64,000 nucleotides of DNA from Candidatus Forterrea multitransposorum CG_2015-17_Forterrea_25_41 (GTDB lineage: Archaea; Iainarchaeota; Iainarchaeia; Iainarchaeales; CSSED10-239): NCBI GenBank assembly GCA_009392915.1, contig CP045477.1, positions 736,001-800,000 on the forward strand, read 5' to 3'. Shown here in pieces: positions 11,919-54,270 of the stretch (position 1 is its first letter; each line of letters begins with the position of its first letter). The notes below the pieces were generated by a model. The model made no database searches and was not told where the DNA came from. It was given only the letters and a program-made list of their open reading frames with translations. A program made the translations under genes and the position numbers.

Positions 11919-11928
11919 AATTAACTAC

Positions 11929-12753: not shown

Positions 12754-12755
12754 AT

Positions 12756-13652
12756 CTAAACCATTCCTGAAAGCATTAAATTAAGTATTACTTGAGAAAT
12801 AAAATATACTATATATCCAATAGTAATTAATACAGGGAAAAATAAAACTACAAAGCTTAAATCTCCTTCTCTCATAACACTTATCATTGATGCAGCAGCA
12901 AATATTTCAATAACAATATAAATATCTAAAAGTAAAAAGATTGTTTTTTGAGCATCTAAAGAAACTTGTAAAGCCTCTGCTGCTGCAATTCCTGAATTTA
13001 CAGCTATATCTGTTAAAAAACCAGTAATTACTCTTGTCATTCCAAAAATAAATGGAGCCACAATTGCAGAAGCAGCAACAATAAAAATTGTTTGAAGCAT
13101 TGTTTTTGTTTGTCTTTCCTTTTTAACCCTGAACAATTGTTTAGTGTCATTTGCAATTTCTTCTAAAACATCAGCTAATTGTGCACCTGTTCTTAAAGAT
13201 TCTTGAATTAAAGTAATAGTTCTTCTTACAATTTTAGATTCAATTCTTAAAGCTAAATAACTTAAAGCAACATACATTGAATCTCCCATTTCAAGTCTTC
13301 TAATAGCTTCATTAATTTCAAAAGAAAGGGGTCCGAAATCAGCAGTGGATACTTCTCTTAAAGCAAAATCAAATGAAGAACCAGCCTTCATTGTGTCTGC
13401 AATTAACTTTAAAGAATCTGGCCAATATCTTTCAATTTCTCTTATTTTTTTAAAATAAAGATACATTGGAAGACCTAAACCTAAAACTAAAGCATTTACA
13501 AATAATAAAAGTCCGATCTTTATATCTAAGAAATAACCGATTATCCCTAAGAATATACTTGCAAAAAATATTAAAACAATCCATATTTTTGCAGGAATCT
13601 TTATTTTTAAAGCATATAAAAATACTTGATATCTGTCTAATCCTTTACTCAA
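12756..13652 (-). CDS. type II secretion system F domain (TadC/FlaJ-like) pilus platform membrane protein
   Basis: 298 aa with TM helices flanking a cytoplasmic domain (FGPLSFEINEAIRRLEMGDSMYVALSYLA), which resembles the GspF/TadC conserved region. Confidence 0.65.
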   Translation of the reverse strand: MSKGLDRYQVFLYALKIKIPAKIWIVLIFFASIFLGIIGYFLDIKIGLLLFVNALVLGLGLPMYLYFKKIREIERYWPDSLKLIADTMKAGSSFDFALREVSTADFGPLSFEINEAIRRLEMGDSMYVALSYLALRIESKIVRRTITLIQESLRTGAQLADVLEEIANDTKQLFRVKKERQTKTMLQTIFIVAASAIVAPFIFGMTRVITGFLTDIAVNSGIAAAEALQVSLDAQKTIFLLLDIYIVIEIFAAASMISVMREGDLSFVVLFFPVLITIGYIVYFISQVILNLMLSGMV

Positions 13653-13658
13653 ATTAAA

Positions 13659-14804: not shown

Positions 14805-14840
14805 TAAAATCTTTTTTTTAATTTATTTTAAATATATATA

Positions 14841-16856
14841 CTATCTTTTTAGTATATATTCTTTTTGGACTTCATGTGCAACATCATTAATAGCCCTAAT
14901 TTTCTTAGAACGTAAATCTTCAAGGATTTTTGCTCTATCACTAATTTTATTTAAAATATCTTGATCATTTAAGTTTGTGTATGTTTTAATTAAATCAAAG
15001 TAAAGAATAGGTTCTTTAGTTCTTTCAAGAGAATCTGTTTCAGGATTCCAAACAAAGACCATATTTATCTTTGGATCTCCATCTAACACACCCATAATCT
15101 CTGCAATTGCAGTAATTCTTCTAACTTGTCCTTTTGAAGTTCTTAATCTTTTTTGAATAATTATAAAATCAATTCCTGCAAGCATTAATGGAGGAACATC
15201 CATTGGTGGTGAAGTTAATCTTACAATTGTTTCTTTTGCAGAATTTGCGTGCACTGTACCCATACAACCATCGTGACCAGTGTTCATGGCAGTGAAAAGA
15301 GTAGTTGCTTCTTTGTGTCTAATTTCACCTACAACTATTCTATCAGGTCTCATTCTTAAAGTGTTTTTAGTTAAGATTTCTAAACTTAATTCACCTTTTC
15401 CTTCTAGGCCTGGTGGTTTTCCTTCAAATCTAATTACATGCTTTATAGGAAGTCTTAATTCCGCAGTGTCTTCAATTGTTAATATTCTGTCTGCTTCTGG
15501 AATAAAGTTTGCAAGAACATTTAATGTAGTTGTTTTTCCAGAACCAGTACCACCTGAAATTAAAATATTTGCAGGTTTTGCACCAAATCCTTCAACAACA
15601 CACCACAAAAATGCAGCTACTTCTAAATTAAGTGTTTTAAAGTTTATTAAATCAACTATAGTGTAAGGATCATCTCTGAACTTTCTAATAGTAACTGTAG
15701 AACCATCAATTGATGCTGGAGGCACAGTAGCATTTACACGAGAACCATCTGGAAGTCTTGCATCTAAAAGAGGATTTGAAATATCTACACTTCTTCCTAA
15801 AGATCTTGCAATTTTATCAATAATATCATTAATTCCATCATCTGAAAAGAAAATAATATTTGTTGTCATCATTCCATAATCTACATGGTAAACATATACT
15901 GGTTTTTTAGGACCAACAATCATAATTTCTTCTAATTTGTCATCTTCAAGTAATGGTTCAATCACACCATAACCAGTCATTTCTTTAACAACTGCATCTG
16001 CATAAAAAGGATAAAGATGTTTTGGGATATTTATTTCTTGTGCAGTTTCTAAAATATCAATTACTTTTTGATAATATATGTTTTTTCTTTGAAGAGGATC
16101 TCTTATTTTATAAGGATCAGAAGCAACAAGTCTTGTGGTTGCTTCTTTTAAAGTATTAATTATAATTTTTTGACTAGGATTTGGTTTTGGAACAGGAACA
16201 GAATAGTGTAATATAGATTGAGTGTCAAGTCTATAAATTTTAACTTCACCATATTTTGTAACTAATGTAGCCCCATCAATTTTTTCTTCTTGTTTTTCAA
16301 AAGCAGAATCTCCTTTTGTTTCAGAAAGTTCTGAAGATTTTATTTCTGAATTAGTATTAAGTGCTTTTAATTTTGAAAGGGCATCAAGTTTATTTTGTTT
16401 TTGTGTATCTGTATCAAAAACAGAATCTTTATCATCTTCAATTAATTTTTTTTCTTTTTCAGATAAATCACCAATATCTAATGTTTTTGATTTTTCTTGA
16501 GAGTCTTGTTTTTCAGCATTTTTTGCTTTTAATCTTTCAAATAAAGAATCTTGTGATTCTGTTGAATTTACTTTTTCTTGTTTTTTAGAAGAATCAAATT
16601 CAGATAAATCCATTATTTTTTTGTTTTGTGTAAAAGAAGATGGCTCTTGTGATTTATTGTGAGAATCAACATCAACAGATTTTTTTTCAAAAAAGTTATC
16701 TTGCTTTAAAGTTTCTTTTTTAGAATCTAGAGAAATTTCTTCTTTCTTTTCAGGTGCATTTTCAGCAGCTTTTCTAGCTTCTTCTTTTTGTTTATCTTTT
16801 TCTAAACTATATTTTCCAACTAAATCATCAATATATGAGGGCATAAAATTATTCAC
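14841..16856 (-). CDS. type IV pilus assembly ATPase (FlaI/PilB/TadA, secretion ATPase family) with a long disordered N-terminal extension
   Basis: Walker A GGTGSGKTTTLN, Asp box and Walker B (ILTIEDTAELRLP), and His box (MNTGHDGCMGTVHANS). The first ~230 aa are K/E/D/S-rich low complexity. Confidence 0.9.
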   Translation of the reverse strand: MNNFMPSYIDDLVGKYSLEKDKQKEEARKAAENAPEKKEEISLDSKKETLKQDNFFEKKSVDVDSHNKSQEPSSFTQNKKIMDLSEFDSSKKQEKVNSTESQDSLFERLKAKNAEKQDSQEKSKTLDIGDLSEKEKKLIEDDKDSVFDTDTQKQNKLDALSKLKALNTNSEIKSSELSETKGDSAFEKQEEKIDGATLVTKYGEVKIYRLDTQSILHYSVPVPKPNPSQKIIINTLKEATTRLVASDPYKIRDPLQRKNIYYQKVIDILETAQEINIPKHLYPFYADAVVKEMTGYGVIEPLLEDDKLEEIMIVGPKKPVYVYHVDYGMMTTNIIFFSDDGINDIIDKIARSLGRSVDISNPLLDARLPDGSRVNATVPPASIDGSTVTIRKFRDDPYTIVDLINFKTLNLEVAAFLWCVVEGFGAKPANILISGGTGSGKTTTLNVLANFIPEADRILTIEDTAELRLPIKHVIRFEGKPPGLEGKGELSLEILTKNTLRMRPDRIVVGEIRHKEATTLFTAMNTGHDGCMGTVHANSAKETIVRLTSPPMDVPPLMLAGIDFIIIQKRLRTSKGQVRRITAIAEIMGVLDGDPKINMVFVWNPETDSLERTKEPILYFDLIKTYTNLNDQDILNKISDRAKILEDLRSKKIRAINDVAHEVQKEYILKR

Positions 16857-31910: not shown

Positions 31911-32756
31911 ATGGATATTTTAGAAAATAATCTTAAATTAATTAATAAATTTAAAAATGAATTAAGTATTGAAGGATATAGTGATAAAACAATTGATATG
32001 TATTCTATGTATATTACATTATTTTCAAAATTTATTAAAAAAGACTTAATTACTATAAATAGTGATGATGTAATTGAATATTTATCTTATTTAAAACAAG
32101 AAAAAAAAGCTGAAAGTACAACTATGAACTTAGTTCTTTCTGCAATTAAGCATTTTTATTCTAATTTTTTAAAAATAGATTTAGAACTTAAAATTAAATT
32201 ACCAAAAAAAGCTAAAAAGATACCTGTTGTACTAACATCTAAAGAAATAATTTTACTTTTAGAAAATATAACTGATTTAAGAAATAAATTAATTACACAA
32301 TTTATTTTTTCAACAGGAGTTAGAATTTCTGAATGTATGGAAATGAAGTATAAAGATTTAGATTTTAATGAATATACAGGAAAAGTTGTTTCTGGTAAAG
32401 GAAATAAAGATAGAATAATAATATTATCTAAAAAATGGGTTGAAGAATATAAAAAATATCTTGAAAATAGAAAAATATCATCAGAATATTTGTTTTGTAA
32501 TAGTGTTGGAAAACCATTATCTGTAGATACTGTTCAAAAATTTTTAAAAATAGCTGCTAAAGGAGCAGGAATTGATAAAAAAGTATCTCCTCACACCTTA
32601 AGGCATTCTTTTGCAACTAACCTGCTTGAAAATGATGTTAATATTAGATATATACAACAATTACTAGGGCATGCTAATCTAAATACAACACAAATATATA
32701 CTAAGGTTAATACAAATAAATTAAAAATTATTAAAAATCCATTAGATGATTTGTAA
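31911..32756 (+). CDS. xerA: tyrosine recombinase, XerC/XerD/XerA-like
   Basis: An N-terminal core-binding domain and a catalytic C-terminus with ARG (GVRISEC), HTLRHSFAT, LLGH and the Tyr in TQIYTKV. Length 281 aa. Confidence 0.85.
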   Translation: MDILENNLKLINKFKNELSIEGYSDKTIDMYSMYITLFSKFIKKDLITINSDDVIEYLSYLKQEKKAESTTMNLVLSAIKHFYSNFLKIDLELKIKLPKKAKKIPVVLTSKEIILLLENITDLRNKLITQFIFSTGVRISECMEMKYKDLDFNEYTGKVVSGKGNKDRIIILSKKWVEEYKKYLENRKISSEYLFCNSVGKPLSVDTVQKFLKIAAKGAGIDKKVSPHTLRHSFATNLLENDVNIRYIQQLLGHANLNTTQIYTKVNTNKLKIIKNPLDDL

Positions 32757-32940: not shown

Positions 32941-33303
32941 ATGACAACAAGAATTTCAAAATTATTTGGTATGGATATTTACCAAACAGATGCTACTTAT
33001 AGAGGAAAAGTTCATGATTTAATAGTAAATATTGAACAAGGTGTTATTGAAACTATAACAACTCAACCTTTAAAGGTAAATTCAAAAATAGAAGCTAAAA
33101 AAATAATAACAGAACACAGTATACCTTATAATAAAGTTATATCTGCTGATGATATTATTTTAATTAATGCAGGAAACGTACCAACTAATAAAAAAGAAAC
33201 TAAAATGGTTGCTGAAGAAACAATAGATCCTGCTAAAAGTAAAGATGCAGCTATAAGAAAGAAATATATAGGTTATAAAAGTAAATATTCTGCAAGAAGG
33301 TAA
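32941..33303 (+). CDS. PRC-barrel-like domain protein (tentative)
   Basis: 120 aa. The segment GMDIYQTDATYRGKVHDLIVNIEQGVIETI resembles the PRC-barrel pattern (V..G..lGkV.D..id...g.i). A strong SD (GGAGGA) precedes the ATG. Confidence 0.4.
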   Translation: MTTRISKLFGMDIYQTDATYRGKVHDLIVNIEQGVIETITTQPLKVNSKIEAKKIITEHSIPYNKVISADDIILINAGNVPTNKKETKMVAEETIDPAKSKDAAIRKKYIGYKSKYSARR

Positions 33304-33446
33304 TTTTTTTAAAAAATTACTTTCTTAATTAATTTTTTATCTATTTTTTAAGATATATTTATATATATTGTTATACTATATATATATAATATATATACAT
33401 AATACATTTATTTTTTTTAATAAATATTTAATACAGGAAGTATGGG

Positions 33447-34046
33447 GTGTCTCTCTTGAGCAAAATAAAATCAATATATATAAAATATAAATTTATGTTT
33501 AAAGATGATATTAATAGATCTTCTTATCTTTATCAAAAAGTATTTAGATCTATATATGGTTATCAACAAAATGTAACTAAAAAAAATAACAAACCATATT
33601 TATATATTAGAAAAGGAATTTTAACAGATATACCTCATTACAAACCAGGAAGAAATGCAGTAATTATTCCTAAAGGTTATGAAAATAAAATTATTGATTA
33701 TTTTTCAACAGGAATTAATCCAGCACATAATTGGAAAAGTAAAGGTGATTGGGATGTTAAATATACTGTTGATGAAATTGATTTAGATTCATCAAATATT
33801 ATTAAAATTATGGAAGATTATATTTATAATTATAAAATAATTAATCTTAATAATAAAGAAACGAATATTTATGATGAATTAAAATATATTACTGAAAATA
33901 ATATTTATGATAAAAATCATTTAACTAATATTTCTAAAATTGTAGAAAATATTATTAATTTTGAATGGTTTAAAGAAGTTAAAGAAGAATCAGAAAAATT
34001 AATTAAATTTTATAATAACTATTTAGAAATAAAAAATAAAATTTAG
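33447..34046 (+). CDS. hypothetical protein
   Basis: 199 aa ORF with no recognisable motif. Confidence 0.35.
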   Translation: MSLLSKIKSIYIKYKFMFKDDINRSSYLYQKVFRSIYGYQQNVTKKNNKPYLYIRKGILTDIPHYKPGRNAVIIPKGYENKIIDYFSTGINPAHNWKSKGDWDVKYTVDEIDLDSSNIIKIMEDYIYNYKIINLNNKETNIYDELKYITENNIYDKNHLTNISKIVENIINFEWFKEVKEESEKLIKFYNNYLEIKNKI

Positions 34047-34055
34047 TTTTGTAAA

Positions 34056-34908
34056 GTAATTACTATATTTTTTTTAGTAATTACTATTATTTTTTAGTAA
34101 TTACTTAATTTTCTTTAATAAATATAATATTTTTTTTCCAAGTTCTTTTTTTACCAGTATTATTTAATTTAATTAAATTTATATCTGTTAGTGTTTTTAA
34201 GTAAGGGTAAAGACTTTTTTCATTAGAATATTCTACATTAAAATTAAGTTTAATATTGTGTCTAATTTCATCCATTGTTACCCATTTATCTGTTGGTATA
34301 GAATTAATAATATGTTCTGCTTGAGTATTTTCTTTAATTTTTATTATATCCCAAATTGTATTTAATTGTTTGATTGAAATGTTTTCAACATCAGCTGTTT
34401 GAACATTATCTTCTACTATATTATTTTTATTATTAAGATATTTTAATTGTAATAACTTTTCTTGTTCTAAGTATTTTTCATTACTTAAATTTTCACTAAA
34501 ATTATTATTTTGAGTAATATTTTTATCTATATTTTCAGATGAATAGGGTATACTATTTGTATTATTAATAGTATTTTTTTCTATAGAAATATTTGAATCA
34601 TTATTTGTATTTTTATTGTTTTCATTAGTTTTTTCTTTTGAAAACATCTTTTTAATAAATTTTAGTAATCCCATATATATAGTAATTACCGTAATTATTT
34701 TAAATAGATTGGTAATTACAGTAATTATATGCATTTATTTATGGTAATTACTGTAATTATATTAAAATTTAAGTGGTAATTACCTAATATTTTATAAATT
34801 AAAAATTATATACTTAATTTTAGATCATATTTTTATGTAGCCTATAATAAATTAATTATATTTTTAGTAATTTATACTATTTTTTATCGTAATTACCATG
34901 GTAATTAC
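34056..34908. repeat. array of the 8-bp palindrome GTAATTAC (and GTAATTAT half-variants) bracketing ORF 34105..34734
   Basis: Perfect copies begin at 34056, 34077, 34097, 34682, 34712, 34744, 34776, 34889 and 34901. Variants begin at 34691, 34721 and 34753. 34889-34908 is a perfect 20-bp palindrome GTAATTACCATGGTAATTAC. Spacing is about 21 bp in the downstream trio and 30-32 bp in the upstream array. Confidence 0.6.
34105..34734 (-). CDS. hypothetical N-rich protein with a possible C-terminal winged-helix
   Basis: 209 aa ORF. Its first ~20 codons (MHIITVITNLFKIITVIT) are just the translation of the GTAATTAC repeat array, so the true start is probably M21 (about 34674) or later. A central Asn-rich low-complexity stretch is followed by a KRTWKK wing-like end. 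Confidence 0.4.
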   Translation of the reverse strand: MHIITVITNLFKIITVITIYMGLLKFIKKMFSKEKTNENNKNTNNDSNISIEKNTINNTNSIPYSSENIDKNITQNNNFSENLSNEKYLEQEKLLQLKYLNNKNNIVEDNVQTADVENISIKQLNTIWDIIKIKENTQAEHIINSIPTDKWVTMDEIRHNIKLNFNVEYSNEKSLYPYLKTLTDINLIKLNNTGKKRTWKKNIIFIKEN

Positions 34909-35100
34909 TTATTAAATAACCTTAAAAATAGTTTATTTTTATAAAATTAGTTAAATTTATGTTTCTTTATTGATTTAAAGGTTTATTTTAACTTTATTTT
35001 TAAAATAATTAGTTTATAAGTTTTATTTGTGTTAAAAATTAGGTTTTTTGTAATTTCAAAATATGTCCAAGAAAGATAGTAAATAACTAATAATTTTGAG

Positions 35101-35175
<75 letters not shown>

Positions 35176-35255
35176 TTTTTTAAATAAATAAAAATAGTCT
35201 TAATATATATTTTAATATACCAAAATATATATAAACCTACTTAAAACAATAATTA

Positions 35256-35828
35256 TTACTCACAATGATATCCTGAAGTATTATCATTTATTTTTTCTAA
35301 TAATTCTTCTAATTTTTTAATATTTTTTTCAATAATATTTTTTTCTCTTTTAAGTTTATTAATTTTATTTTTACTATTTAATATTTCTAAATTAGCACTA
35401 CAGTTTGGACATTTAAAATTATATGCAGCAGCAACTTCAAATATAACTTCTACATTACATTTTTTAGGACAGAAAAAATAATCGTGCCCTTCTTTTTGAG
35501 TTAATTCATACTCTAGTTTTTTAAATTTTTTAATTTCTTGTAATAATAAAACATCTACAATTTTTTTATATTTTATTTCCCAAATAAATTCATACAAATT
35601 ATTTTCATTTCTTTGTTTTTTATAACATGCTATTCCTCTGAAGTGAAGACTATTTAGTGTAGATCTTACAACAGTAATTTTTTCATTTAATTTTTTAGAA
35701 ATTTCTTCTGGAGACAATCCATCATTATTAAATAATTTTATAACATTAATAGCCATTGGCCCTGCAATTTGTTCTAAAAAAATAGCTGTTGATTTATCAG
35801 ATAATAAGTCTTTTTTTAATTTATTCAT
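35256..35828 (-). CDS. tfe: transcription factor E alpha (TFE, TFIIE-alpha homologue)
   Basis: N-terminal winged helix and a zinc ribbon CPKKC...CPNC. Length 190 aa with a C-terminal coiled coil. Confidence 0.75.
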   Translation of the reverse strand: MNKLKKDLLSDKSTAIFLEQIAGPMAINVIKLFNNDGLSPEEISKKLNEKITVVRSTLNSLHFRGIACYKKQRNENNLYEFIWEIKYKKIVDVLLLQEIKKFKKLEYELTQKEGHDYFFCPKKCNVEVIFEVAAAYNFKCPNCSANLEILNSKNKINKLKREKNIIEKNIKKLEELLEKINDNTSGYHCE

Positions 35829-35869
35829 TATAACACCACTTCCTTGTATACTATAATTATGTTACAAAA

Positions 35870-36394
35870 CTATTTTAAGGAGATAACTTTTTTGCCTTTT
35901 TCTGTAGGTTCTAGTTTTATCTTATTATTTTTAAATTTATCAATATATAATGCATCAGGATTTAAAAAATTAAGAATAATTGCAAGAGCTGCAACTTCAC
36001 TATGCGGTTGATTTGTCACAGAAACATTATAGTTTGCTTTTTGATAATAAAATTTATCTACCTTAGGTCCACCAACAATAATTAATAAATCTTTATTTTT
36101 AAAATCTTTTTTAATAAAATCTATTTTTTCAACAATTTGTTCTCCATACATAGTTAGATGTATTATTATTCCTTTAAAATCATCTACAAATGTTTCTGGT
36201 AATTCAATATATTTTGCATTAAAATTTCCACCCCATTGATTACTAATAGAAATTATATTTTTTTCAAAAACATTATCTTCTATCCCTGAATAATAAAATT
36301 CATCTGCACTAAAAGCTCTAGAAACTAATGCACAATGTGTTGTAATCCTTTTATCTCTAAGTGGTCTGTGATCTAATTTTAATATTTTAATCAT
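35870..36394 (-). CDS. trm56: tRNA (cytidine56-2'-O)-methyltransferase aTrm56 (SPOUT)
   Basis: KLDHRPLRDKRITTHCALVSRAF at the N-terminus and QPHSEVAALAIILNFL at the C-terminus match aTrm56. Length 174 aa. Confidence 0.85.
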   Translation of the reverse strand: MIKILKLDHRPLRDKRITTHCALVSRAFSADEFYYSGIEDNVFEKNIISISNQWGGNFNAKYIELPETFVDDFKGIIIHLTMYGEQIVEKIDFIKKDFKNKDLLIIVGGPKVDKFYYQKANYNVSVTNQPHSEVAALAIILNFLNPDALYIDKFKNNKIKLEPTEKGKKVISLK

Positions 36395-36514
36395 TTTTTC
36401 TTACTTTTTAGTTATGTTTAATTTACAAATAAAATAGAAATTATTTATAAATGTTTAGTATATATATTATATAGTATAATCTTTTTATATATTAGGTTTG
36501 TACAATATAAAAAA

Positions 36515-36588
36515 GGATCCGTAGCTCAGTCTGGCAGAGCACTGGACTTTTAATCCAGGTGTCGTGGGTTCAAATCCCACCGGATTCA
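36515..36588 (+). tRNA. tRNA-Lys (anticodon TTT)
   Basis: GGATCCGTAGCTCAGTCTGG D-arm, anticodon loop CTTTTAA and T-arm GGGTTCAAATCCCAC fold into a cloverleaf. The acceptor stems pair. Confidence 0.9.
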
Positions 36589-36622
36589 CTTTCTATTATT
36601 TTTTATTTTAAAATAATTATTA

Positions 36623-36697
36623 GGGCTCGTAGCTCAGTCTGGTAAGAGCACTGGACTCTTAATCCAGGTGTCGTGGGTTCAAATCCCACCGAGCTCA
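36623..36697 (+). tRNA. tRNA-Lys (anticodon CTT)
   Basis: Near-duplicate of the preceding tRNA, with anticodon loop CTCTTAA and acceptor GGGCTCG/CGAGCTC. Confidence 0.9.
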
Positions 36698-36722
36698 CTT
36701 CCTTAATACTTTAAAAAATAAT

Positions 36723-36796
36723 GGTTCCGTAGCTCAGCCTGGGAGAGCAATAGGCTGAAGACCTATGTGTCGTGGGTTCAAATCCCACCGGAGCCA
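36723..36796 (+). tRNA. tRNA-Phe (anticodon GAA)
   Basis: GGTTCCGTAGCTCAGCCTGGGAGAGC, anticodon loop CTGAAGA and T-arm GGGTTCAAATCCCAC. The acceptor stems pair. Confidence 0.9.
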
Positions 36797-37407
36797 TATT
36801 TTACTTTTTTTATAAAAATAATTTCTTCATCTGTTTCTATTGCTTTTCTGGCATTATCAAAAACTTGTTTATTTATTTTTATATTTTTATTAATTAGGTT
36901 TGTTTCTGGTGAATGAATTATTATGTTATCTACGTCATATCCTGTAATTATTATGAAGTGGCCTTGAAATGCACCTTCTTTTTGAAATAGTTTATTGTAA
37001 TCTACTAATATTATCGGTACATATCCATCATTGATTTTTGTTAATATATTTTCTATTGTAATTTTTTGTTCGTATATCTTAACATTTAACATTTTTGCTG
37101 TATCATACATTTTTTTAATATTAATTAATATTTCATCTTTTAAAAATGGATTTGCTGTTAAAGAAAATTCGTCTTCTGGCAATTTAATTTCAGTTGTTTT
37201 TGTATAAAATTCAACATCAAAACCAAATTGTTTACTGACTAGTGCTAATTGCAAACTATATAATCCTTTTCCTTCTTTATAACTTAATTTGTGCTTAATT
37301 TCTTTATTTGATTTTTCTTCTTTAAAATAAGCATACACCATTTTTAGTGCTATTGGGCCGCAATCAAATTTTTCGTCTTGTTGATAATAAGGTATGTTTA
37401 AGTTCAT
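36778..37407 (-). CDS. papain-like cysteine peptidase, C39-like domain protein (tentative)
   Basis: N-terminus YYQQDEKFDCGPIALKMV matches the QxxxxxCGxAAL catalytic Cys region of C39 peptidases, with a His candidate in GHFIIITGYD. The last ~6 codons overlap the 3' end of tRNA-Phe on the opposite strand. Confidence 0.45.
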   Translation of the reverse strand: MNLNIPYYQQDEKFDCGPIALKMVYAYFKEEKSNKEIKHKLSYKEGKGLYSLQLALVSKQFGFDVEFYTKTTEIKLPEDEFSLTANPFLKDEILINIKKMYDTAKMLNVKIYEQKITIENILTKINDGYVPIILVDYNKLFQKEGAFQGHFIIITGYDVDNIIIHSPETNLINKNIKINKQVFDNARKAIETDEEIIFIKKVKYGSGGI

Positions 37408-37480
37408 ATGTATATTTTTAATTAAAACTATTTAAATTTATTTGCTTTTTTAATTTTATAAAAAATAAATTCTCTTTTAA

Positions 37481-40024
37481 TTGTTTTCTATTATATATTA
37501 TATTATGGATGATAAAACATATACTCCTATGATGAAACAATATGTTGAAACTAAAAAACAATACCCTGAAGGTATTTTACTTTTTAGAGCAGGAGATTTT
37601 TATGAAATGTTTTTTGATGATGCAAAAGAAGCATCAAGTATCCTAAACATAACTTTAACCAAAAGAGGTAAGGGTGCAACTGAAGCTCCTCTTGCAGGTA
37701 TACCCTACCATTCAATTGATCCTTATATTGCAAAATTAATTAAATCAGGAAAAAAAGTAGTTATTTGTGATCAAATAGAAAACCCTAAATTTGCAAAAGG
37801 CTTAGTTAAAAGAGCAGTTACAAGGATAATTACTCCAAGTACTTTTTTTAATGATTCTTATGATAATAATTTTTTATGTTCTATAACGAACCACAAAGAT
37901 AAATTTGGGTTCTCATTAGTTGATATTACAACTGGAGAATTCAAAATTACTTCTTTTAATGATTTTTCAAGTCTTTTAAATGAATTAATATTAAATAAAC
38001 CAAAAGAAATATTATTAACTAAAAATATTTTAAAAAATATAGATTCTCTTGACTTGATTAAAAAAGCAATACCAAGCACTATTATAAACTATACAGATAA
38101 TTTAGATGTTGAATTTGCCTATCAAGAGTTATTAAATCACTTCAACATGAAATCTTTAACTCCTTTTGGTATTATTTCTACTAATCATTCATCAGAAATA
38201 ATTTTATCTGCTTATAATGCTATTAAATACTTAAAAGAAACACAATTTTCAAATCTAAGTTATATTAGAACAATTAAAGAATATTCATTAAATAAATATT
38301 TAAAATTAGATAGAAAAACTGTTAGAAACTTAGAACTTGTTTATAATCTTCAAGATTTTTCAATTAAAAATTCATTATTTCATTTAATTAACCATACAAA
38401 AACACCTATGGGTTATAGAAAATTATATTTTGATTTATTACACCCTATATTAGATAAAGAAAAATTAAATAATATTTATGATTCTGTTGAGGAATTAATT
38501 AATAATCAACATTTAATGCAAGAACTTTCATTAAATTTATCATATATTGGTGATATTGAAAAAATAATTAGTAAAATTGGTTTTGGAAATGCAAATCCTA
38601 GAGATTTAATTTCTTTAAAACAAAGTATCTCAATACTTCCAAAAATAAAAATGATATTAGAGAGTACTTCTTCTAAAAATTTAAAAATATTAAATAGTGA
38701 ATTAATAACTTTAGATAGATTGCATGAATTAATTAATGTTTCAATAGTTGAAGAACCTCCTTTCACAGTTAGAGAAGGTAAATTTATAAAACCTGGTTAT
38801 TCAAAAGAATTAAGTGATTTAATTTATACTTCTAAAAATATAAATTCTTGGTTAGTTGAATTTGAAGCTAGATTAAAGACAGAAACAAATATTAAATCTT
38901 TAAAAGTAAAATTTAACAAAGTGTTTGGATATTACATAGAAATACCAAAAGCACAAGCAAAAGAAGTTCCTTTTTATTTTGAAAGGAAACAAACACTTGT
39001 AAATGCAGAAAGATTTACAACAAAAGAACTTTCTGAAAAAGAAATAATTGTTTTAAATGCACAAGAAAAAAGAATCGAACTAGAATATAATATTTTTTTA
39101 GAAATTTGTAAAGAAATTAATACTTATAGAGAAGAAATTAATTTAGTTGCAAGTTTAATTTCAGAACTTGATGTATATTATTCATTTGTAAATGTATCTT
39201 TGTATAATAATTGTTCAAGACCAATAATTAATAATTCAGATAAATTAATATTTAAAGAATTAAGACATCCTATTATTGAAAAAAACATAGAATTTATACC
39301 AAATGATTGTTCACTTAATAATTTAGAAAGAACAATGATAATTACAGGTCCAAACATGTCTGGAAAAAGTAGTTATATGAGAAGTGTTTGTCTTGCAATA
39401 ATTCTTGGACACGTTGGTTGCTTTGTTCCTGCTAAAGAATCAGAAATTGGTCTAATAGATGGTATTTTCACAAGGATAGGTGCTTCTGATGATATTTTAC
39501 ATGGTCAAAGTACTTTTTTAGTTGAAATGTCTGAAATTTCTTATATTTTAAATCATTGTACAAATAATAGTTTTATTATTTTAGATGAAGTTGGAAGAGG
39601 TACAAGTACTTATGATGGTTTAAGCCTTGCTTGGTCAATTACAGATTATTTGAATAATAGAATTAAATCAAAAACTTTAGTTGCAACTCATTATCATCAA
39701 TTAAATAAAATGGAAGAATTATTTGAAGGTGTTAGTAATTACCATGTAACTGCAAAAGAAGAAAACAATAATTTAGTATTTTATCATAAACTAATAAAAG
39801 GTGGGATAAATAAAAGTTATGGTATTCAAGTTGCAAAAATTGCTGGTCTTCCAGAAGAAATTATTGAAAAAGCATTATTAATTCAAAGAGATTTAGAAGA
39901 AGATGTTTTTTTAAAACAAAATAAATCTTCTCCTAATTTACAAGAAGTTAAAAAAATAAATGAAGATGAAAAAAGAATTCTTTTTAAAAAAGAACAAAAA
40001 AGATTAGAAGATTATAAAAAATAA
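37481..40024 (+). CDS. mutS: DNA mismatch repair protein MutS
   Basis: Mismatch-binding N-terminus (GDFYEMFFDDA), Walker A GPNMSGKSSYMRS, TFLVEMSE and DEVGRGTSTYDG. The likely true start is M9 (37505). Confidence 0.9.
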   Translation: MFSIIYYIMDDKTYTPMMKQYVETKKQYPEGILLFRAGDFYEMFFDDAKEASSILNITLTKRGKGATEAPLAGIPYHSIDPYIAKLIKSGKKVVICDQIENPKFAKGLVKRAVTRIITPSTFFNDSYDNNFLCSITNHKDKFGFSLVDITTGEFKITSFNDFSSLLNELILNKPKEILLTKNILKNIDSLDLIKKAIPSTIINYTDNLDVEFAYQELLNHFNMKSLTPFGIISTNHSSEIILSAYNAIKYLKETQFSNLSYIRTIKEYSLNKYLKLDRKTVRNLELVYNLQDFSIKNSLFHLINHTKTPMGYRKLYFDLLHPILDKEKLNNIYDSVEELINNQHLMQELSLNLSYIGDIEKIISKIGFGNANPRDLISLKQSISILPKIKMILESTSSKNLKILNSELITLDRLHELINVSIVEEPPFTVREGKFIKPGYSKELSDLIYTSKNINSWLVEFEARLKTETNIKSLKVKFNKVFGYYIEIPKAQAKEVPFYFERKQTLVNAERFTTKELSEKEIIVLNAQEKRIELEYNIFLEICKEINTYREEINLVASLISELDVYYSFVNVSLYNNCSRPIINNSDKLIFKELRHPIIEKNIEFIPNDCSLNNLERTMIITGPNMSGKSSYMRSVCLAIILGHVGCFVPAKESEIGLIDGIFTRIGASDDILHGQSTFLVEMSEISYILNHCTNNSFIILDEVGRGTSTYDGLSLAWSITDYLNNRIKSKTLVATHYHQLNKMEELFEGVSNYHVTAKEENNNLVFYHKLIKGGINKSYGIQVAKIAGLPEEIIEKALLIQRDLEEDVFLKQNKSSPNLQEVKKINEDEKRILFKKEQKRLEDYKK

Positions 40025-40034
40025 GTGAAAATAT

Positions 40035-41789
40035 ATGTTAATTAAAAAATTATCTCAAGAAACCATTAATTTAATTAGTGCTGGAGAAGTAATTGAAGGT
40101 CCAAGTGATATTTTAAAAGAACTTTTAGAAAATTCTGTGGATGCTAAAGCAACAGAGATAACTGTTGAAATAAAATCTTCTGGTTTAGATTTAATAAAAA
40201 TAAAAGATGATGGTACTGGTATTTTAAAAGAAGATTTAGAAGTTTGTCTTGAAAAATACACTACAAGTAAACTTGAAAAAATAGATGATTTATACACTAT
40301 TGATAGTTTTGGTTTTAGAGGTGAGGCATTATCAACTATTGCTGCAGTTTCAAAATTTAAAATTGTATCTTCTACTACAAATGATGGTAAGGGATATGTT
40401 TTAGAGAATAACAATATTTCTCAAGTATCTTCAAACAAAGGAACAACTATAACAGTTCAAGATTTATTTTATAATGTGCCTGTTAGAAAAAAGTTTTTAA
40501 AATCAAAAAGCTTTGAATATTCTAAAGTATATGAAGTTTTTCTTGCAAATGCTTTATTAAATCCAAATATTACTTTTAAGTTTATTTCTGAAAAGAAAAA
40601 TGTAATTTTTCCAAAAACAGATTTTGAAAATAGATTAGTTCAAATATATGGTGTTGAAATTAAAACTAAAACAATTAATTTAGATATTAATACAGAATTA
40701 TTTAAAGTTAAAGGAATTTTAACTAATCCTCAAAATCCAGTTTATTTTCCTTCAAATTTTTTATTTATTAATAAAAGATTTGTATTTTCACCTCAAATCT
40801 ATAAAGCTATTATTGATTCTTATAAAGATTATTTAATGATACAACAAAAACCATTTTTTATTTTATTTATTGAGTTAGATCCTAGAACAATAGATGTGAA
40901 TGTACATCCTAAAAAAAGAGTTGTTAAATTACAAAATGAAATGTTGTTTTTATTAGAGTTTAAAAGAGAATTATCTAAAAAATTAGATGCATCTTTAGGT
41001 AAATTTGCTCCTGCTTTAGAGCATAATTCTTTAAAAGATTTTATTTCTTCTAAAAATTCAGATTATTCTTCTTTTCAAAAACCAACTCAAAGTAGTTATT
41101 CAAGTAATAACTATTCAAGTAATAAAGAAGTTCCTTTTTTCAGAAGTGATCTTCAAAAACCACTTTATGAAAATAACAATATTTCTAGTATTTCAGATAA
41201 CTTAACTTTATTTGAACACAATATTACAAAAATACTTGGTCAAATAAAAAACACCTTCATTATTTGTGAAACTGATAAAGGGATGATATTAATTGATCAA
41301 CATGCTGCTGATGAAAGAATAAACTTAGAAAAAAATAGATTGAAATATGCTGATTATGTTGAAAAACAAAATTTAATATCAGAAATTTCTTTAGATTTTA
41401 TTTCTGAATCACATAAAGAAATTTTAGCAAATAATATTGAAATTTTTAAAAAAACTGGTTTTGAATATTATTTAAAAAATGATATTTATTTTTTAAAAAC
41501 AATTCCTTTATTTTTAAATAAATATTTTGATAAAAACTTATTTTTAAATCTTTTAAAAGATATTGAAGAAGGCAATAATGAAGTTTTTAAACTTAAAGAT
41601 AGTCTTTTAAAATTAAGATCTTGTAAAGAATCTATTAAAGCTAATGATTATTTAAGTAGTCATGAACAAATAGAAATTATTAAAAAATTAAATCTTTGTA
41701 AAGATAAAGGTATTTGTGCTCATGGAAGACCAACAATTATATTTTTATCTTTAAAAGATCTTGAAATATTATTTAAAAGAATAGTTTAA
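40035..41789 (+). CDS. mutL: DNA mismatch repair protein MutL (endonuclease-type)
   Basis: GHKL ATPase motifs (ELLENSVDA, DDGTG, GFRGEALSTI) and the C-terminal endonuclease motif IDQHAADERINLE (DQHAx2Ex4E). Confidence 0.9.
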   Translation: MLIKKLSQETINLISAGEVIEGPSDILKELLENSVDAKATEITVEIKSSGLDLIKIKDDGTGILKEDLEVCLEKYTTSKLEKIDDLYTIDSFGFRGEALSTIAAVSKFKIVSSTTNDGKGYVLENNNISQVSSNKGTTITVQDLFYNVPVRKKFLKSKSFEYSKVYEVFLANALLNPNITFKFISEKKNVIFPKTDFENRLVQIYGVEIKTKTINLDINTELFKVKGILTNPQNPVYFPSNFLFINKRFVFSPQIYKAIIDSYKDYLMIQQKPFFILFIELDPRTIDVNVHPKKRVVKLQNEMLFLLEFKRELSKKLDASLGKFAPALEHNSLKDFISSKNSDYSSFQKPTQSSYSSNNYSSNKEVPFFRSDLQKPLYENNNISSISDNLTLFEHNITKILGQIKNTFIICETDKGMILIDQHAADERINLEKNRLKYADYVEKQNLISEISLDFISESHKEILANNIEIFKKTGFEYYLKNDIYFLKTIPLFLNKYFDKNLFLNLLKDIEEGNNEVFKLKDSLLKLRSCKESIKANDYLSSHEQIEIIKKLNLCKDKGICAHGRPTIIFLSLKDLEILFKRIV

Positions 41790-42979
41790 ATCTTTACAAT
41801 CCATATAAATAAAAATACTGTAATTATTAATAAAATAGTGATTGCTGTATTTTCAGAAGAATCTGGGTTTTCTGAATTAATGCTAATTGTTTGAGTACCA
41901 ATATTTTTAACATTTTCTCCTTCTAAATAATTAATAGTAAAATTTAAGGTGTGTTCTCCTTCTTTATATGTTTTAATTATAAATGGTATTTCAACAACAT
42001 CTTTTGGTCTAATTAGATTTATTTTTTCTTGAGATACAATTATTTCTCCATTAAAATAAGGTTTGATATATACATCTGTAACTTCTTTTTCTGAATTGTT
42101 AATAATAATTAAATGACCAGTTTGTTCTTCTTTTGGTACAATTATTTTTTGAATATCTATATGATTTTCTAAAGCATTTTCTTTTTCTGAAATAGTTATT
42201 ATTTTTTGTTTAATTTTTTTTGTAATTTCTTGGTTAAAAACATCTGTGTATTTAAGATTTGCAATAGGTGTTGCAAATGTGTTATTTGAATCTGTTTTTA
42301 CAAAATAATCTATTTTTATTTCACTTTGAGCTTTAAGCAATCCTTCAAAACTTGTTTCTCCAGAAACATTTTCTAAATTAGAATTATATATGAATAAATT
42401 AGATGCATTTTTAAGTTCAATAAAAGTATCTGCATAACCACTATTTCTTACGTGAATAGTAATAGGTATTAAAGTATTAACATATGCTGTAGAAGGTGCA
42501 TCTTGATAAAAATCTTCATCAGTTATTTTTGAATTATAATAAGTTCCAATTAAACTATCTGAATCTATAATTAACCTTGGTAAAAAATTATTTTCAATAC
42601 AAATTTCTAATTTGTTATCAATTGAATCAAATTTTCCTAATTTTATAATATTTTTTTCTTTAATCTCTTTATCAATTATTTCTGTAATATTTTTATCATT
42701 TACTTTAATGTTGATTATAACTCCTTTAGAAATAGGTATATAATTTTTAAGCATTAATTGAAAATAAGTTTCTGAAAACTCATCAGATTTTAAATTAAAA
42801 GTAAAATCTTTACAAAAACTACTTCCTTTTTCAACAACAATATCACCTTTATCTAATATATTTAAAGTGGTTTCATCAATAGTTGTTGCTAATAATGAGT
42901 TTGAAATTAAGATAATTCCAATAATTAATAAAAAATACTTATAATTCATATATACTTCACAATATATTATATCTAACAA
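41786..42979 (-). CDS. secreted, C-terminally membrane-anchored surface protein
   Basis: N-terminal signal-like helix (YKYFLLIIGIILISNSLLA) and a C-terminal TM (AITILLIITVFLFIWIVKI). Length 397 aa. Confidence 0.45.
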   Translation of the reverse strand: MLDIIYCEVYMNYKYFLLIIGIILISNSLLATTIDETTLNILDKGDIVVEKGSSFCKDFTFNLKSDEFSETYFQLMLKNYIPISKGVIINIKVNDKNITEIIDKEIKEKNIIKLGKFDSIDNKLEICIENNFLPRLIIDSDSLIGTYYNSKITDEDFYQDAPSTAYVNTLIPITIHVRNSGYADTFIELKNASNLFIYNSNLENVSGETSFEGLLKAQSEIKIDYFVKTDSNNTFATPIANLKYTDVFNQEITKKIKQKIITISEKENALENHIDIQKIIVPKEEQTGHLIIINNSEKEVTDVYIKPYFNGEIIVSQEKINLIRPKDVVEIPFIIKTYKEGEHTLNFTINYLEGENVKNIGTQTISINSENPDSSENTAITILLIITVFLFIWIVKI

Positions 42980-42998: not shown

Positions 42999-45900
42999 TT
43001 AATGTCTTAATATTTTTTTCTTTTTCTCAGCTATGGTTTTTTCTTTCTTTTTATTACCCAACCTTAAATAAGCATATAAACTAACGAATAAAACTACAAT
43101 AATTGTAATTAAAATATATTGTGTTTTTGTTGAATTTTTCGAAACAGGATTTGTTTGTTTTAAAACATAAATTACATCAAGATATTTTTCATCATCATAA
43201 TTTGTTTTTGCAAAATTAAGTGTTTCAACATCATATTCTTTTTTTTGATAATCTATTATTTCTTTTTTAGCATCATCTTTTATTTCAATTAAACCAGAGG
43301 TTAAATTATCATAATCTGATTTTATTTTTTCAATTCTATTTATTGTTTCTAAAGAAATGGCATTAAGTGCACCTTTGTAGTCTTTTTCATTATATTTTTC
43401 ATCAAAGTTAGATAATTCTTTATTGAAAAGTACACTTTCTAAAAAAGCATAATTTTTTTCTAATCTTTTTGCATCGTTTTCTGTAATTCCAGAAAAATAC
43501 CCAATTGAATAAAGATCAGTTAAAGTATATGTTTCATATAACAAATATGTTTTTGTAATTATTTCATTAATTTTGTCTTCTTCTAAATTATTTGTTATTG
43601 GGTTAATGTAATAATAAAGTTCTTCAGCTTTTTCTTTTAGTTTCTGATTAATTATATCTTTAATTTCTGTAATGTTTTTATCTTTACTTAATAAATCTAA
43701 ATCTATGTTTTCTAAATTATTTTCATTAATAATTTCATTAAGTTCTTTAAATTCAGCAATTTCTAAACTTTTAGTGTCGTTTTGTAAGTCCTTTTCTCTT
43801 TTTTTAATATCTATTAATAACTGTATTAAATCTTTTTCTGCTAAAACCATATTTTGATATTTATTACTTTCTATTTTTTCTAATTTGTTTTCTTCAAAAG
43901 AAGTTAGTTCTTTTTGATAAATCTCATTTAAAGTAATTAAATAATTTTCTTCAATAATTTGATAATGTTTGTTTTTTTCTAATAGTTTTTGTAAGGTGTT
44001 ATAATAACTGTAAATAGTTTCTATTTCATTAATACTATATTCTTCAGAATATGGTTTGTCCAACAAATATTTCAATTCTTTAATTGATTCTTTTTGAATA
44101 TCTAAAAATCTAGTGTTTCTAAGCTCTTCTGCTGCTAAAATTATTTCTCTAATTTCTTCATAAACTTTATTCTTTTCAATTAATGTTTTTAAAACAAATT
44201 CTAAAACTTCATCTTTTTTAATCTCTATATTATAAATTAAGTTTCCATTTTCTTCAAATAAAGTAATTTCTTTATTATTTTTATAAAAAGTATTAATTTC
44301 GTTTTCTTTAGTTTCTTTAATAATTAATTTTTGATTAATTTTTTCAAAAAATTTATTCTTTAAAGAAATATTTGTTGTTGTAATAAATTTATCACTACTT
44401 ATTTCTTCAATATTTTTAGATAGGTTATTTTCAAATACAGGTCCATAGACATAAAATTCATTTTCTTTTTTTGTATAATAATAAATATTATTTTCTTCTA
44501 TAATAACATCTTCATTTTTAGATATAAATCCATCAATAAATAAAAGTGAATCATATATTCCTTCTACTTCGTTTTCAATTGTAATTTTAATAATACTTTC
44601 TTTTAATGATAAATAAATTATTTCATAATTTATATTTTTATTATTCTCATAATCTACTAAGAAATAATTTTTACCAGGATATATAGTGTGTATCTTTATT
44701 TGTGTTTTATTAATAAGTAACCCAGGATCTTTAGATACTAGGTTTAAATAATTATTTTCTATTTCAATATTTAAAATAATTTCAGAGAAGTTATTTATTA
44801 ATTCAAAATAATATTTATCATCTATTTTTTTAATAGTGTAGTTTTTATTTTCTTGAATGATCTTTTTAATGATTAAATCTATTTCTCTTTCAATATTATT
44901 TATTTTTTCTTGATTTTCATTAATATTTATAATTAACTCAACATTATTTTTTTGTTTTATTTCCTTTACATCTTTTTCAATTTCACTAATTATTTCATAA
45001 TTTTCTTCAAGTTTATTTTCAACATATATTTCATTAATTTTATTTTCTATTTCTTTAATTCTTTTTTTAATTATAATTATTTTTTCATTACTTTCAAGTT
45101 TATAATTTATGTTGTTAATGTGTTCTAAACAATCTTCTTCTGTTGAATAAATATATAATTCATAATCTTTAACTTCTTCAATTTCGCTTTCAATAACACT
45201 ATAAATTAACTCTTGGCAATTTTGTATTTCATTTGCATTTTTTATTTTTTCACAATAATTTAATTTTTCAAGAAGATTGTCACTTTCTTTATATTGACTA
45301 ATTAATCTTGATATATATAGATTACTTTGTTCTTCTAGATTTTCAACTAAAATATCACAAGCAAACAGTTGAGAGTTTTCTAACTTTTCTTTTTCAACAA
45401 TTTCTTGGTTTTGTAAAATTTCTAAATTAATTTCTTTTAATTCTGATAAATATTTTCCAAAAGTAATTGTTTTATTTTCAAAGTAATTTTTTTGTTTTAA
45501 ATAATAATTATATTTTTCAGTAGTTAAATATTCTTTATTTTTTTCAATTTCTTTTTGATAATCTTCTATTTTATTATAAATTACATCTAAATTTTCAGTT
45601 ATTCTATTATTAATAATTATAAATTCTGTAACTAATGATTTTTCTTTTCCAACCAACTTATCCATTAAAATATAAAAATTATATCCATCTAGTTTATCTA
45701 AATTATAGTTTATGTTTCTTAAATCTTCTATGTTAGATAATTTTTTATATACAAAATTATTTATTCTTAAAATTTCAGGAAGATTAATTTCTTGTGAATT
45801 AATTTCTTTTTCATAGATTTGTAAATAATACAAAGTTAGATCAGATACATTTTCTTTTGCAAGATAGGTTTCTCTAAAACCTAATTCTTTAGAATATACA

Positions 45901-46487
45901 TGTAATTCTTTAATTTCTTGATTTACTTTTGATAAATAACTTTCATTTTCTATTTGTTTTTTCATAAAATTAATATTATCATTTAATAATATATAATCTT
46001 GAAATATTTCTTCTTCAGGAATTAGGTTAACTTCTTGCTGTTCTAAAAATAAGGTATAATCAATAATAAGATACATGCTTTTTTTAGTTGCATTATCAAC
46101 ATATGAAAAGGTTTTAGAAAAAAGGTCCATTACATCATTATAATTATCTAAAATTGTTTTGATGTTCTCTTTTCTACACCCTTCATTCAATAAATCTAGT
46201 TCTTTTTTAGTAAGTGTATAATAATAATGACTGGATGCTAAGTAATTTTTATAAGTATCTATATTTTGACTTAAAGAAAGAGGTATTTTGTTATTTTTTT
46301 CAATAGATAATTTTTCAATTTCAGTAAAACATTTATTTTGAGAAGTACAATCATCAATAGAAGTAGAGGAATAATGAGTTAAAGCAAGACAAGCTTGCTT
46401 TTCTCTAGTGGTTATAAATTCAAGGCAACCTGAAAGGCTTACTAGTAAAATCAATAAAAAATATATGTATATTTTTTTATCAATCAA
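42999..46487 (-). CDS. giant coiled-coil surface protein (signal peptide with possible lipobox, C-terminal TM anchor)
   Basis: 1162 aa. The N-terminus LLILLVSLSGCLEF suggests a signal peptide. About 1000 aa are E/K/N/I/L-rich with heptad-like character. The C-terminus has a TM helix plus a basic tail (NKKKEKTIAEKKKK). Confidence 0.5.
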   Translation of the reverse strand: MIDKKIYIYFLLILLVSLSGCLEFITTREKQACLALTHYSSTSIDDCTSQNKCFTEIEKLSIEKNNKIPLSLSQNIDTYKNYLASSHYYYTLTKKELDLLNEGCRKENIKTILDNYNDVMDLFSKTFSYVDNATKKSMYLIIDYTLFLEQQEVNLIPEEEIFQDYILLNDNINFMKKQIENESYLSKVNQEIKELHVYSKELGFRETYLAKENVSDLTLYYLQIYEKEINSQEINLPEILRINNFVYKKLSNIEDLRNINYNLDKLDGYNFYILMDKLVGKEKSLVTEFIIINNRITENLDVIYNKIEDYQKEIEKNKEYLTTEKYNYYLKQKNYFENKTITFGKYLSELKEINLEILQNQEIVEKEKLENSQLFACDILVENLEEQSNLYISRLISQYKESDNLLEKLNYCEKIKNANEIQNCQELIYSVIESEIEEVKDYELYIYSTEEDCLEHINNINYKLESNEKIIIIKKRIKEIENKINEIYVENKLEENYEIISEIEKDVKEIKQKNNVELIININENQEKINNIEREIDLIIKKIIQENKNYTIKKIDDKYYFELINNFSEIILNIEIENNYLNLVSKDPGLLINKTQIKIHTIYPGKNYFLVDYENNKNINYEIIYLSLKESIIKITIENEVEGIYDSLLFIDGFISKNEDVIIEENNIYYYTKKENEFYVYGPVFENNLSKNIEEISSDKFITTTNISLKNKFFEKINQKLIIKETKENEINTFYKNNKEITLFEENGNLIYNIEIKKDEVLEFVLKTLIEKNKVYEEIREIILAAEELRNTRFLDIQKESIKELKYLLDKPYSEEYSINEIETIYSYYNTLQKLLEKNKHYQIIEENYLITLNEIYQKELTSFEENKLEKIESNKYQNMVLAEKDLIQLLIDIKKREKDLQNDTKSLEIAEFKELNEIINENNLENIDLDLLSKDKNITEIKDIINQKLKEKAEELYYYINPITNNLEEDKINEIITKTYLLYETYTLTDLYSIGYFSGITENDAKRLEKNYAFLESVLFNKELSNFDEKYNEKDYKGALNAISLETINRIEKIKSDYDNLTSGLIEIKDDAKKEIIDYQKKEYDVETLNFAKTNYDDEKYLDVIYVLKQTNPVSKNSTKTQYILITIIVVLFVSLYAYLRLGNKKKEKTIAEKKKKILRH

Positions 46488-54267: not shown

Positions 54268-54270
54268 AAA

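Follow-up and report, generated by a model that had tools for sequence, protein, structure and literature searches.

This analysis concerns a 64,000-nucleotide stretch of the genome of the archaeon Candidatus Forterrea multitransposorum (contig CP045477.1, positions 736,001 to 800,000; below, the window) and, within it, a dense array of the palindromic octamer GTAATTAC that brackets a small gene encoding an orphan winged-helix protein of 189 residues. It is rather likely that this array represents the operators of the protein, which would act as a lineage-specific negative autoregulator by binding them and repressing its own gene. The operator interpretation, which had already been put forward in the initial annotation with the enclosed protein as the cognate binder, is supported by the confident prediction of a winged-helix fold, by the pairing of gene and palindrome in 31 of 31 species genomes retrieved, and by the location of the most proximal site (O1), which separates a TATA-like box from the start codon. 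The gene, its protein domains and the associated DNA sites are as follows, in window coordinates.

34105–34674, minus strand: gene for the orphan winged-helix protein, 189 amino acids (aa), with the start moved to M21 of a 209-aa open reading frame (ORF).
34636–34671, minus strand: N-terminal Lys-rich amphipathic helix, residues 2–13, GLLKFIKKMFSK, as delimited by alignments (the structure model has a helix at residues 4–11).
34108–34377, minus strand: C-terminal winged-helix domain, residues ~100–189, with the near-invariant segments WD..K..ENTQAEH, NEKSLYPYLKTLTD (recognition helix), and GKKRTWKK (wing).
34056–34104, no strand: 3′ triple, GTAATTAC at 34056, 34077, and 34097, a tandem repeat with a period of 20–21 bp (21, then 20).
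34682–34698, no strand: proximal unit O1, ATAATTAC-G-GTAATTAC in gene orientation, at −24 to −8 from the ATG.
34698–34705, minus strand: TATA-like box ATTTAAAA in gene orientation, at about −31 to −24 from the ATG and centered near −27, abutting and overlapping O1; putative promoter element.
34712–34783, no strand: putative upstream operators, comprising unit 2 (34712–34728), unit 3 (34744–34760), and a lone GGTAATTACC (34775–34784).
34833–34839, minus strand: TACATAA (TTATGTA on the plus strand), a second conserved element located past the proximal array but short of the distal pair, at −165 from the ATG.
34889–34908, no strand: distal pair, a perfect 20-bp palindrome GTAATTACCATGGTAATTAC, that is, GTAATTAC-CATG-GTAATTAC, with octamers at −234 and −222.

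Exact copies of GTAATTAC occur 15 times in the window, against 1.59 expected from dinucleotide shuffles of the same 64 kb. Nine of these fall within the 853 bp from 34056 to 34908 (at 34056, 34077, 34097, 34682, 34712, 34744, 34776, 34889, and 34901), while dinucleotide shuffles of positions 34001–35000 contained 0.04 copies on average and 2 at the maximum. Beyond the array region, about 0.095 copies occur per kb, and the six other copies (11255, 13024, 30626, 39735, 50666, and 62700) are all unpaired singles, five of them within long ORFs. The number and positions of the clustered octamers were thus given correctly in the initial annotation, and its statement that they occur essentially nowhere else was slightly overstated, given the six further single copies. 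A further ~14 kb flanking the window in the same organism, which brings the portion of the source genome covered here to about 78 kb, added two more single octamers and none of the 17-bp units described below, and the array is unique across these ~78 kb. An identical array was present on four neighboring contigs of other assemblies. The octamer cluster is real and strongly non-random.

The layout of the array matches the one initially described. Three variant octamers GTAATTAT (34691, 34721, and 34753) each lie 9 bp past an octamer and form with it a 17-bp unit, GTAATTAC-N-GTAATTAT, beginning at 34682, 34712, and 34744 (30 and 32 bp from start to start) and constituting a 7-1-7 palindrome, TAATTAC-N-GTAATTA. 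The starts within the proximal array, including the lone upstream octamer, are 30, 32, and 32 bp apart, approximately three helical turns, and the 21- and 20-bp steps of the 3′ triple as well as the 20-bp palindrome of the distal pair were likewise found as reported. The 3′ triple sits in the convergent gap between a 199-aa gene and the winged-helix gene, with its final octamer touching the stop codon of the latter. No noncoding RNA was identified in the long intergenic region by Rfam searches of positions 33000–37500, which returned four tRNAs as the sole matches, and this intergenic region held no credible small ORF. Literature searches on the octamer, and on Iainarchaeota combined with winged helix or origin, returned nothing relevant to the array and protein system.

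As stated in the initial annotation, the first 20 codons of the 209-aa ORF are merely the repeats read as protein. Homologs and public gene calls begin at the equivalent of M21 and yield the 189-aa product, which places the start codon at the ATG at 34672–34674 on the minus strand; positions 34675–34734 are non-coding repeat DNA, in which the peptide 'ITVIT' is ATTACnGTAATTAC translated, and in several homologs the frame is closed by a stop codon just upstream of the equivalent ATG. Read in gene orientation, the corrected upstream region presents TTTAAA, ATAATTAC-G-GTAATTAC, TATATAT, and the ATG, and across related loci the order is TTTAAA, ATAATTACgGTAATTAC, 7–16 nt, and the ATG. In an AT-rich clade of relatives, O1 follows the TATA-like box and precedes the start codon, and in a second, higher-GC clade, a TATA-like ATTATAA or TTTAA is flanked by octamers where a locus has more than one. 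Because no Shine-Dalgarno-like motif precedes the ATG at 34674, unlike in many other genes of the window, the mRNA is probably leaderless, in which case O1 would have the TATA box on one side and the transcription start on the other, the classical site at which archaeal repressors block polymerase recruitment. Farther upstream, TACATAA is found in exactly one copy at −120 to −227 in 22 of 22 AT-rich-clade loci, where the background rate is 0.23 per kb on each strand. Similar TATACAT strings precede other genes in the window, and TACATAA is a possible upstream promoter.

The conservation of the array was evaluated with one genome per GTDB species, retrieved via the homolog, giving 31 loci of 20–47% GC whose labels (Candidatus Iainarchaeum/ainarchaeum) are those of DPANN archaea. 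All 31 carry GTAATTAC within ~100 nt upstream of the ATG. Over 32 loci, ~136 of ~204 octamers fall at −300 to 0, which corresponds to ~14 per kb in this zone versus ~0.13 per kb outside it. The helical phasing raised in the initial annotation was also borne out: over the same 32 loci, spacings peak at 9, 21–23, and 30–32 bp, where 9 bp is the distance within units, 21–23 bp that between units (30–32 bp from start to start), and 20–22 bp that between lone octamers. These spacings are integral numbers of helical turns. In an alignment of eight genomes, the octamers, the unit structure, and the TTTAAA box are conserved and the spacers have diverged; units 2 and 3 are invariant and O1 is nearly so, with ATCATTAC in one genome and ACATTAC in the upstream half in another. 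The position of TTTAAA or TTTATA is kept across the AT-rich loci, and the pattern as a whole reads as a clear phylogenetic footprint.

The number of sites varies with the clade. AT-rich loci carry 5–12 sites each, and most have a distal pair or triple with a spacing of 12 or 20–22 bp; 3′ octamer copies are also found in six of the relatives (L001, L002, L003, L018, L029, and L030), and in the metagenome locus L160 the 3′ array has grown to six or more 22-bp repeats. In the higher-GC clade, only 1–3 octamers are present, all at the promoter, and for this reason the ancestral state looks like simple autoregulation, with the array having expanded in the AT-rich clade. Sites also extend into coding sequence. 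In four species, the coding sequence of the nearby aTrm56 gene contains a full 17-bp unit with an octamer 31 bp further on (L010, 3100–3150; L015, 3054–3102; L019, 3104–3152; L017, 3100–3150), and at these sites, which encode the peptide GIITVITK...GGNYQ, the synonymous positions that match the motif are kept while neighboring third positions vary, which suggests selection on the DNA motif inside aTrm56. Seven species have octamers inside the winged-helix gene itself, at about +73 to +115, and in locus L009, six or seven octamers spaced by ~21 bp make up a second array (2090–2190) in the gap between MutS and tRNA-Phe, 2.2 kb from its main array. In total, the arrays found in the ~78 kb of the source genome and ~300 kb of relatives are all at the winged-helix gene or within ~2.5 kb of it.

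The protein itself combines a conserved N-terminal helix, a poorly conserved, disordered and N-rich linker of variable length with one predicted helix, and the C-terminal winged helix, the latter being predicted with confidence where the initial annotation had suggested it as a possibility. The nearest structures of this domain are those of sequence-specific repressors, including RosR, Fur, MecI/BlaI, and PadR. Its identity across the AT-rich clade is 70–80%, and, like the DNA motif, its recognition helix and wing hardly vary. By sequence, the protein falls outside all curated families compared (MarR, PadR, ArsR, Fur, BlaI, TrmB, Lrs14, and others); no Pfam family reached its cut-off, the lone match being a spurious one to TMEM9 at 18.6 bits, and NCBIfam, PHROG, and PDB sequence searches gave zero matches. 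A profile of the domain retrieved only 38 clusters from 1.84 billion representative proteins, all clearly of the same family and followed by an abrupt cut-off. Since the cluster set ends abruptly and no database family matches, the 189-aa protein founds a small orphan winged-helix family with sharp boundaries, which we found only in Iainarchaeota. The database names 'transposase' and 'DNA mismatch repair ATPase MutL', carried by some homologs (P0030, P0059, P0074, and P0079), found no support in our searches. For the N-terminal helix, the hydrophobic moment is 0.68, compared with 0.50 when shuffled, and surpasses the shuffled value in 79 of 81 family members; F11 of this helix is invariant in an alignment of 28 sequences and nearly so in one of 81. 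In these respects the helix is reminiscent of membrane-targeting or partner-binding peptides, with the hydrophobic moment as the sole pointer to a membrane.

Taken as an autoregulatory system, the locus would function as follows. A winged-helix dimer bound at O1, between the TATA-like box and the start codon, would block access of TBP/TFB or of RNA polymerase, and occupancy of O1 would thus shut off synthesis of the protein. The other units, three helical turns apart, lie on one face of the helix together with the distal pair and the two-turn repeats of the 3′ triple, and dimers bound there could cooperate, wrap, or loop the DNA and thereby sharpen the response. A comparable arrangement is that of Ss-LrpB from Saccharolobus solfataricus, whose own control region reportedly contains three palindromic boxes at regular intervals. 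In both cases, an archaeal DNA-binding protein has palindromic boxes at integral helical turns in its own promoter, which allows cooperative binding or wrapping. However, Ss-LrpB is described as an Lrp/AsnC-family helix-turn-helix protein with a ligand-binding RAM domain and three 15-bp boxes at ~42-bp spacing, whereas the present system has a winged helix without a family, up to 12 sites, some of them 3′ of the gene, and no effector domain. The 7-1-7 palindrome bears a formal likeness to the operators generally attributed to Fur, PerR, and Zur. These bacterial proteins differ from ours in the absence of sequence similarity, in their metal-binding dimerization domain, which is lacking here, and in motif and host, and we do not claim membership in the Fur family. 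Likewise, RosR (Halobacterium VNG0258), PadR/MarR/BlaI-MecI, and STIV F93 are set apart by the absence of any Pfam, NCBIfam, or PDB sequence match and by the N-terminal helix and long disordered linker.

Several observations weigh against so simple a repressor. The co-localization of gene and sites would also be compatible with another binder. The 9–12 sites exceed the needs of simple autoregulators, and in the AT-rich clade they lie on both sides of the gene; in some relatives they extend into the coding sequences of aTrm56 and the winged-helix gene or, in L009, to the second array 2.2 kb off. For a classical winged-helix dimer, a palindrome of 8 bp would be a short target, and the true site may be either the octamer or the 7-1-7 unit. 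Finally, the N-terminal amphipathic helix and the long disordered linker are atypical of simple repressors, and the 189-aa protein has no evident ligand-binding domain.

The genes surrounding the locus, to which the alternative explanations refer, are the following.

35100–35175, minus strand: initiator tRNA-Met, encoded on the strand of the winged-helix gene and upstream of the array.
35256–35828: TFE.
35870–36394: aTrm56.
32941–33303: PRC-barrel protein.
31911–32756: tyrosine recombinase, XerA equivalog (276 bits versus a cut-off of 220), 2 kb from the locus.

The gene order MutS, tRNA-Phe/Lys/Lys, aTrm56, TFE, initiator tRNA-Met, array, winged-helix gene, convergent 199-aa gene, PRC-barrel gene, and XerA is kept across the 31 genomes, with a conserved non-coding region that is unusually long (400–650 bp) for such compact genomes. 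The tRNA-Met was correctly called an initiator at the outset, since its A1:U72 pair and the three G:C pairs at the loop end of its anticodon stem are the marks of archaeal initiators. Its position is the same in 23 of 24 related loci scanned, and as far as the data show, it is a syntenic neighbor and not part of the mechanism.

The abundance of sites and the N-terminal helix would find an explanation if the array were an architectural or anchoring, centromere-like site and the protein an adaptor, holding the sites with its winged helix and attaching, through its N-terminal helix on the long flexible linker, to the membrane or to a partner such as the divisome or a partition ATPase. Autoregulation would then be a by-product, as in plasmid centromere-binding proteins. 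We regard this explanation as unlikely. In its favor, 9–12 phased sites over ~850 bp (up to ~2.5 kb in relatives) come closer to partition or anchoring complexes than to simple operators, and the constrained coding-sequence sites of four species, the widely amphipathic N-terminal helix with its F11, and the maintained synteny with XerA and the PRC-barrel gene point the same way. Such an array resembles ParR-parC, omega, AspA of pNOB8, and TubR-tubC, in which ~10 phased short repeats cover the binding protein's own promoter; a single complex of this kind could act in autoregulation and at the same time build a higher-order nucleoprotein structure, and AspA and TubR are also winged-helix proteins. 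In contrast to these plasmid systems, the present locus has no adjacent partition nucleoside triphosphatase (NTPase), is chromosomal and syntenic in 31 species genomes, and shows no detected homology to their proteins. More generally, no ParA/SegA/ParM-type NTPase and no TubZ was found among the window ORFs scanned, in the flanks, or in the neighborhoods of related loci. The higher-GC clade, with its few promoter sites, again suggests plain autoregulation as the ancestral state, and the membrane contact of the helix is read from its hydrophobic moment only.

Chromosomal precedents for anchoring include Noc-NBS, RacA-ram, and MatP-matS, alongside ParR-parC. In Bacillus subtilis, Noc and RacA join a site-specific DNA-binding domain to a polar anchor or to a short amphipathic helix that targets the membrane, located at the N-terminus in Noc, and each has multiple palindromic sites. 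Noc is ParB-like and RacA MerR-like, and their sites are said to be scattered over large chromosomal domains, whereas here a plain winged helix without ParB or MerR similarity faces one tight cluster per ~78 kb, which also counts against anchoring. Regarding the neighboring PRC-barrel gene, proteins of this type act in archaeal cell division in Haloferax; however, their genes occur in many unrelated neighborhoods (10.1101/2023.03.28.534520), which weighs against anchoring. In its most specific form, this explanation envisages a locus-specific chromosome tether of Iainarchaeota, in which the winged helix nucleates on the GTAATTAC cluster beside the initiator tRNA-Met, TFE, and XerA genes and the N-terminal helix attaches the locus to the membrane or the division apparatus. 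We consider such a tether distinctly unlikely; if it proved true, it would be the first candidate for a chromosome-anchoring or centromere-like system in DPANN archaea, from a protein family without known relatives.

The palindromes could also be bound by a different factor, for example a global regulator, with the winged-helix gene as one of its targets and its product having a different specificity of its own. The tie between protein and motif is not direct, and single copies of GTAATTAC occur elsewhere, including ~70 nt upstream of TFE in two relatives (L029 and L031). Yet every one of the 31 genomes retrieved via the protein has a site next to the gene, and arrays appear only at or near that gene in all the sequence covered. 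The near-invariant recognition helix, furthermore, parallels the invariant motif across genomes of 20–47% GC. On balance, a different binder is improbable, and the 189-aa protein itself would be the factor that occupies the sites.

A replication origin, with the protein as a lineage-specific origin-binding factor comparable to WhiP at Sulfolobus oriC3 or UBP at the ucm element, is very unlikely. Lineage-specific origin-binding proteins have archaeal precedent (PMC12141716), and several phased dyad sites within a conserved non-coding region of 400–650 bp would suit an origin. The initial annotation had likewise considered an iteron or origin array. This is not supported, as neither a Rep nor an Orc1/Cdc6 gene was found within ~78 kb, and because Orc1/Cdc6 is absent from this span, the origin interpretation is unsupported. 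More broadly, no Orc1/Cdc6, WhiP, or other AAA+ initiator was found within ±5 kb in related loci or in the ~78 kb here (window ORFs scanned, plus flanks). The skew profile of the 64 kb has no clear inflection at 34.5 kb and tracks gene strand, and the sites lie exactly on the predicted core promoter of the gene. The spacer at 34909–35099 is very AT-rich, but so is the genome (24% GC), and the higher-GC relatives keep their 1–3 sites without a comparable long AT-rich tract.

The least probable explanation, which we regard as extremely remote, supposes that a small mobile element or plasmid had inserted next to the tRNA gene and that the repeats are its ends or iterons: a tRNA gene is adjacent, a tyrosine recombinase lies 2 kb away, the 3′ triple is an iteron-like 21-bp tandem repeat, and many unrelated metagenomic tandem repeats of 20–22 bp hold the same octamer, but the gene order from MutS to XerA is kept across 31 genomes, the recombinase is a housekeeping XerA equivalog, the 3′ end of the tRNA has no second copy, and neither a Rep gene nor a PHROG match was found. 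The suggestion of small integrated element ends is rejected on the grounds of synteny, recombinase identity, and the unduplicated tRNA end. Plasmid iterons are rejected as well, given the missing Rep gene, the chromosomal synteny, and promoter units that are palindromic and 30–32 bp apart; the 3′ triple alone fits the tandem spacing of 20–22 bp. A viral or mobile origin of the 17-bp unit was also considered and rejected. Matches were found in 89 viral contigs, nearly all with a single match and none with a comparable array, which looks like chance background.

A metagenome scan for three octamers at 19–22 bp spacing returned at least 119 contigs, and six among the matches listed are the Iainarchaeota locus. 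The other matches listed are unrelated 20–22-bp tandem repeats with differing flanks and 21–65% GC. Because so many unrelated metagenomic tandem repeats contain it, the octamer alone is not diagnostic, and the scan is silent on a regulon. Seven seawater contigs of 50–56% GC (L130, L131, L133, L148, L166, L184, and L188) carry recurrent arrays of three or four ACGT-GTAATTAC-ACGT repeats at 20–22 bp spacing without a relative of the winged-helix protein; these form a separate repeat family, which may represent operators or iterons belonging to some marine lineage or element.

The locus is best read as an operator array with its autoregulator, familiar in kind and new in family. To our knowledge, transcription regulation in DPANN archaea is almost wholly uncharacterized, and these organisms are uncultivated. 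Against this background, the locus offers a clean, testable pair of a small orphan winged-helix protein and a sharply defined motif (the octamer and TAATTAC-N-GTAATTA), in a promoter architecture that is kept from 20% to 47% GC. The analysis corrects the gene start, with 20 codons of the longer ORF assigned to repeat DNA, and defines a new protein family that is left unannotated or misnamed in current databases. A plain autoregulator would be a useful, unsurprising addition to the known repertoire; should the extra sites and the N-terminal helix serve anchoring, the system would bear on how minimal archaea organize and segregate their chromosome.

Further observations concern the surrounding sequence, which has ~24% GC. 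Other archaeal neighbors in the window are a class II ribonucleotide reductase, PolD DP1/DP2, and the RFC small subunit. No match to an archaeal dif-like site was found near XerA, in a weak test that used an unverified consensus. Bacterial-type MutS and MutL genes are adjacent at 37481–41789 (plus strand) in this archaeal genome, and the position of MutS is kept in most related loci. A C39-like peptidase ORF (36778–37407, minus strand) overlaps tRNA-Phe (36722–36797, plus strand) by ~20 nt with its 3′ end. Large ORFs of 1162, 397, 348, 354, and 397 aa without a Pfam family at the thresholds used lie at 42999–46487 (minus), 41786–42979 (minus), 53221–55335 (minus), and 62562–63755 (plus), the last of which has only a sub-threshold pilin-like NCBIfam match. 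At 10014–16856 (minus strand), a cluster resembling type IV pilus or archaellum genes comprises a prepilin peptidase (A24), two T2SSF-like membrane proteins, and a T2SSE ATPase, and the lone GTAATTAC at 11255 lies in an intergenic gap of this cluster. Among the related loci, L009 is labeled Candidatus Vampirococcus lugosii and L005 Bacilli bacterium; the presence of aTrm56 and TFE on both suggests that these are archaeal contigs wrongly binned with bacterial metagenome-assembled genomes.

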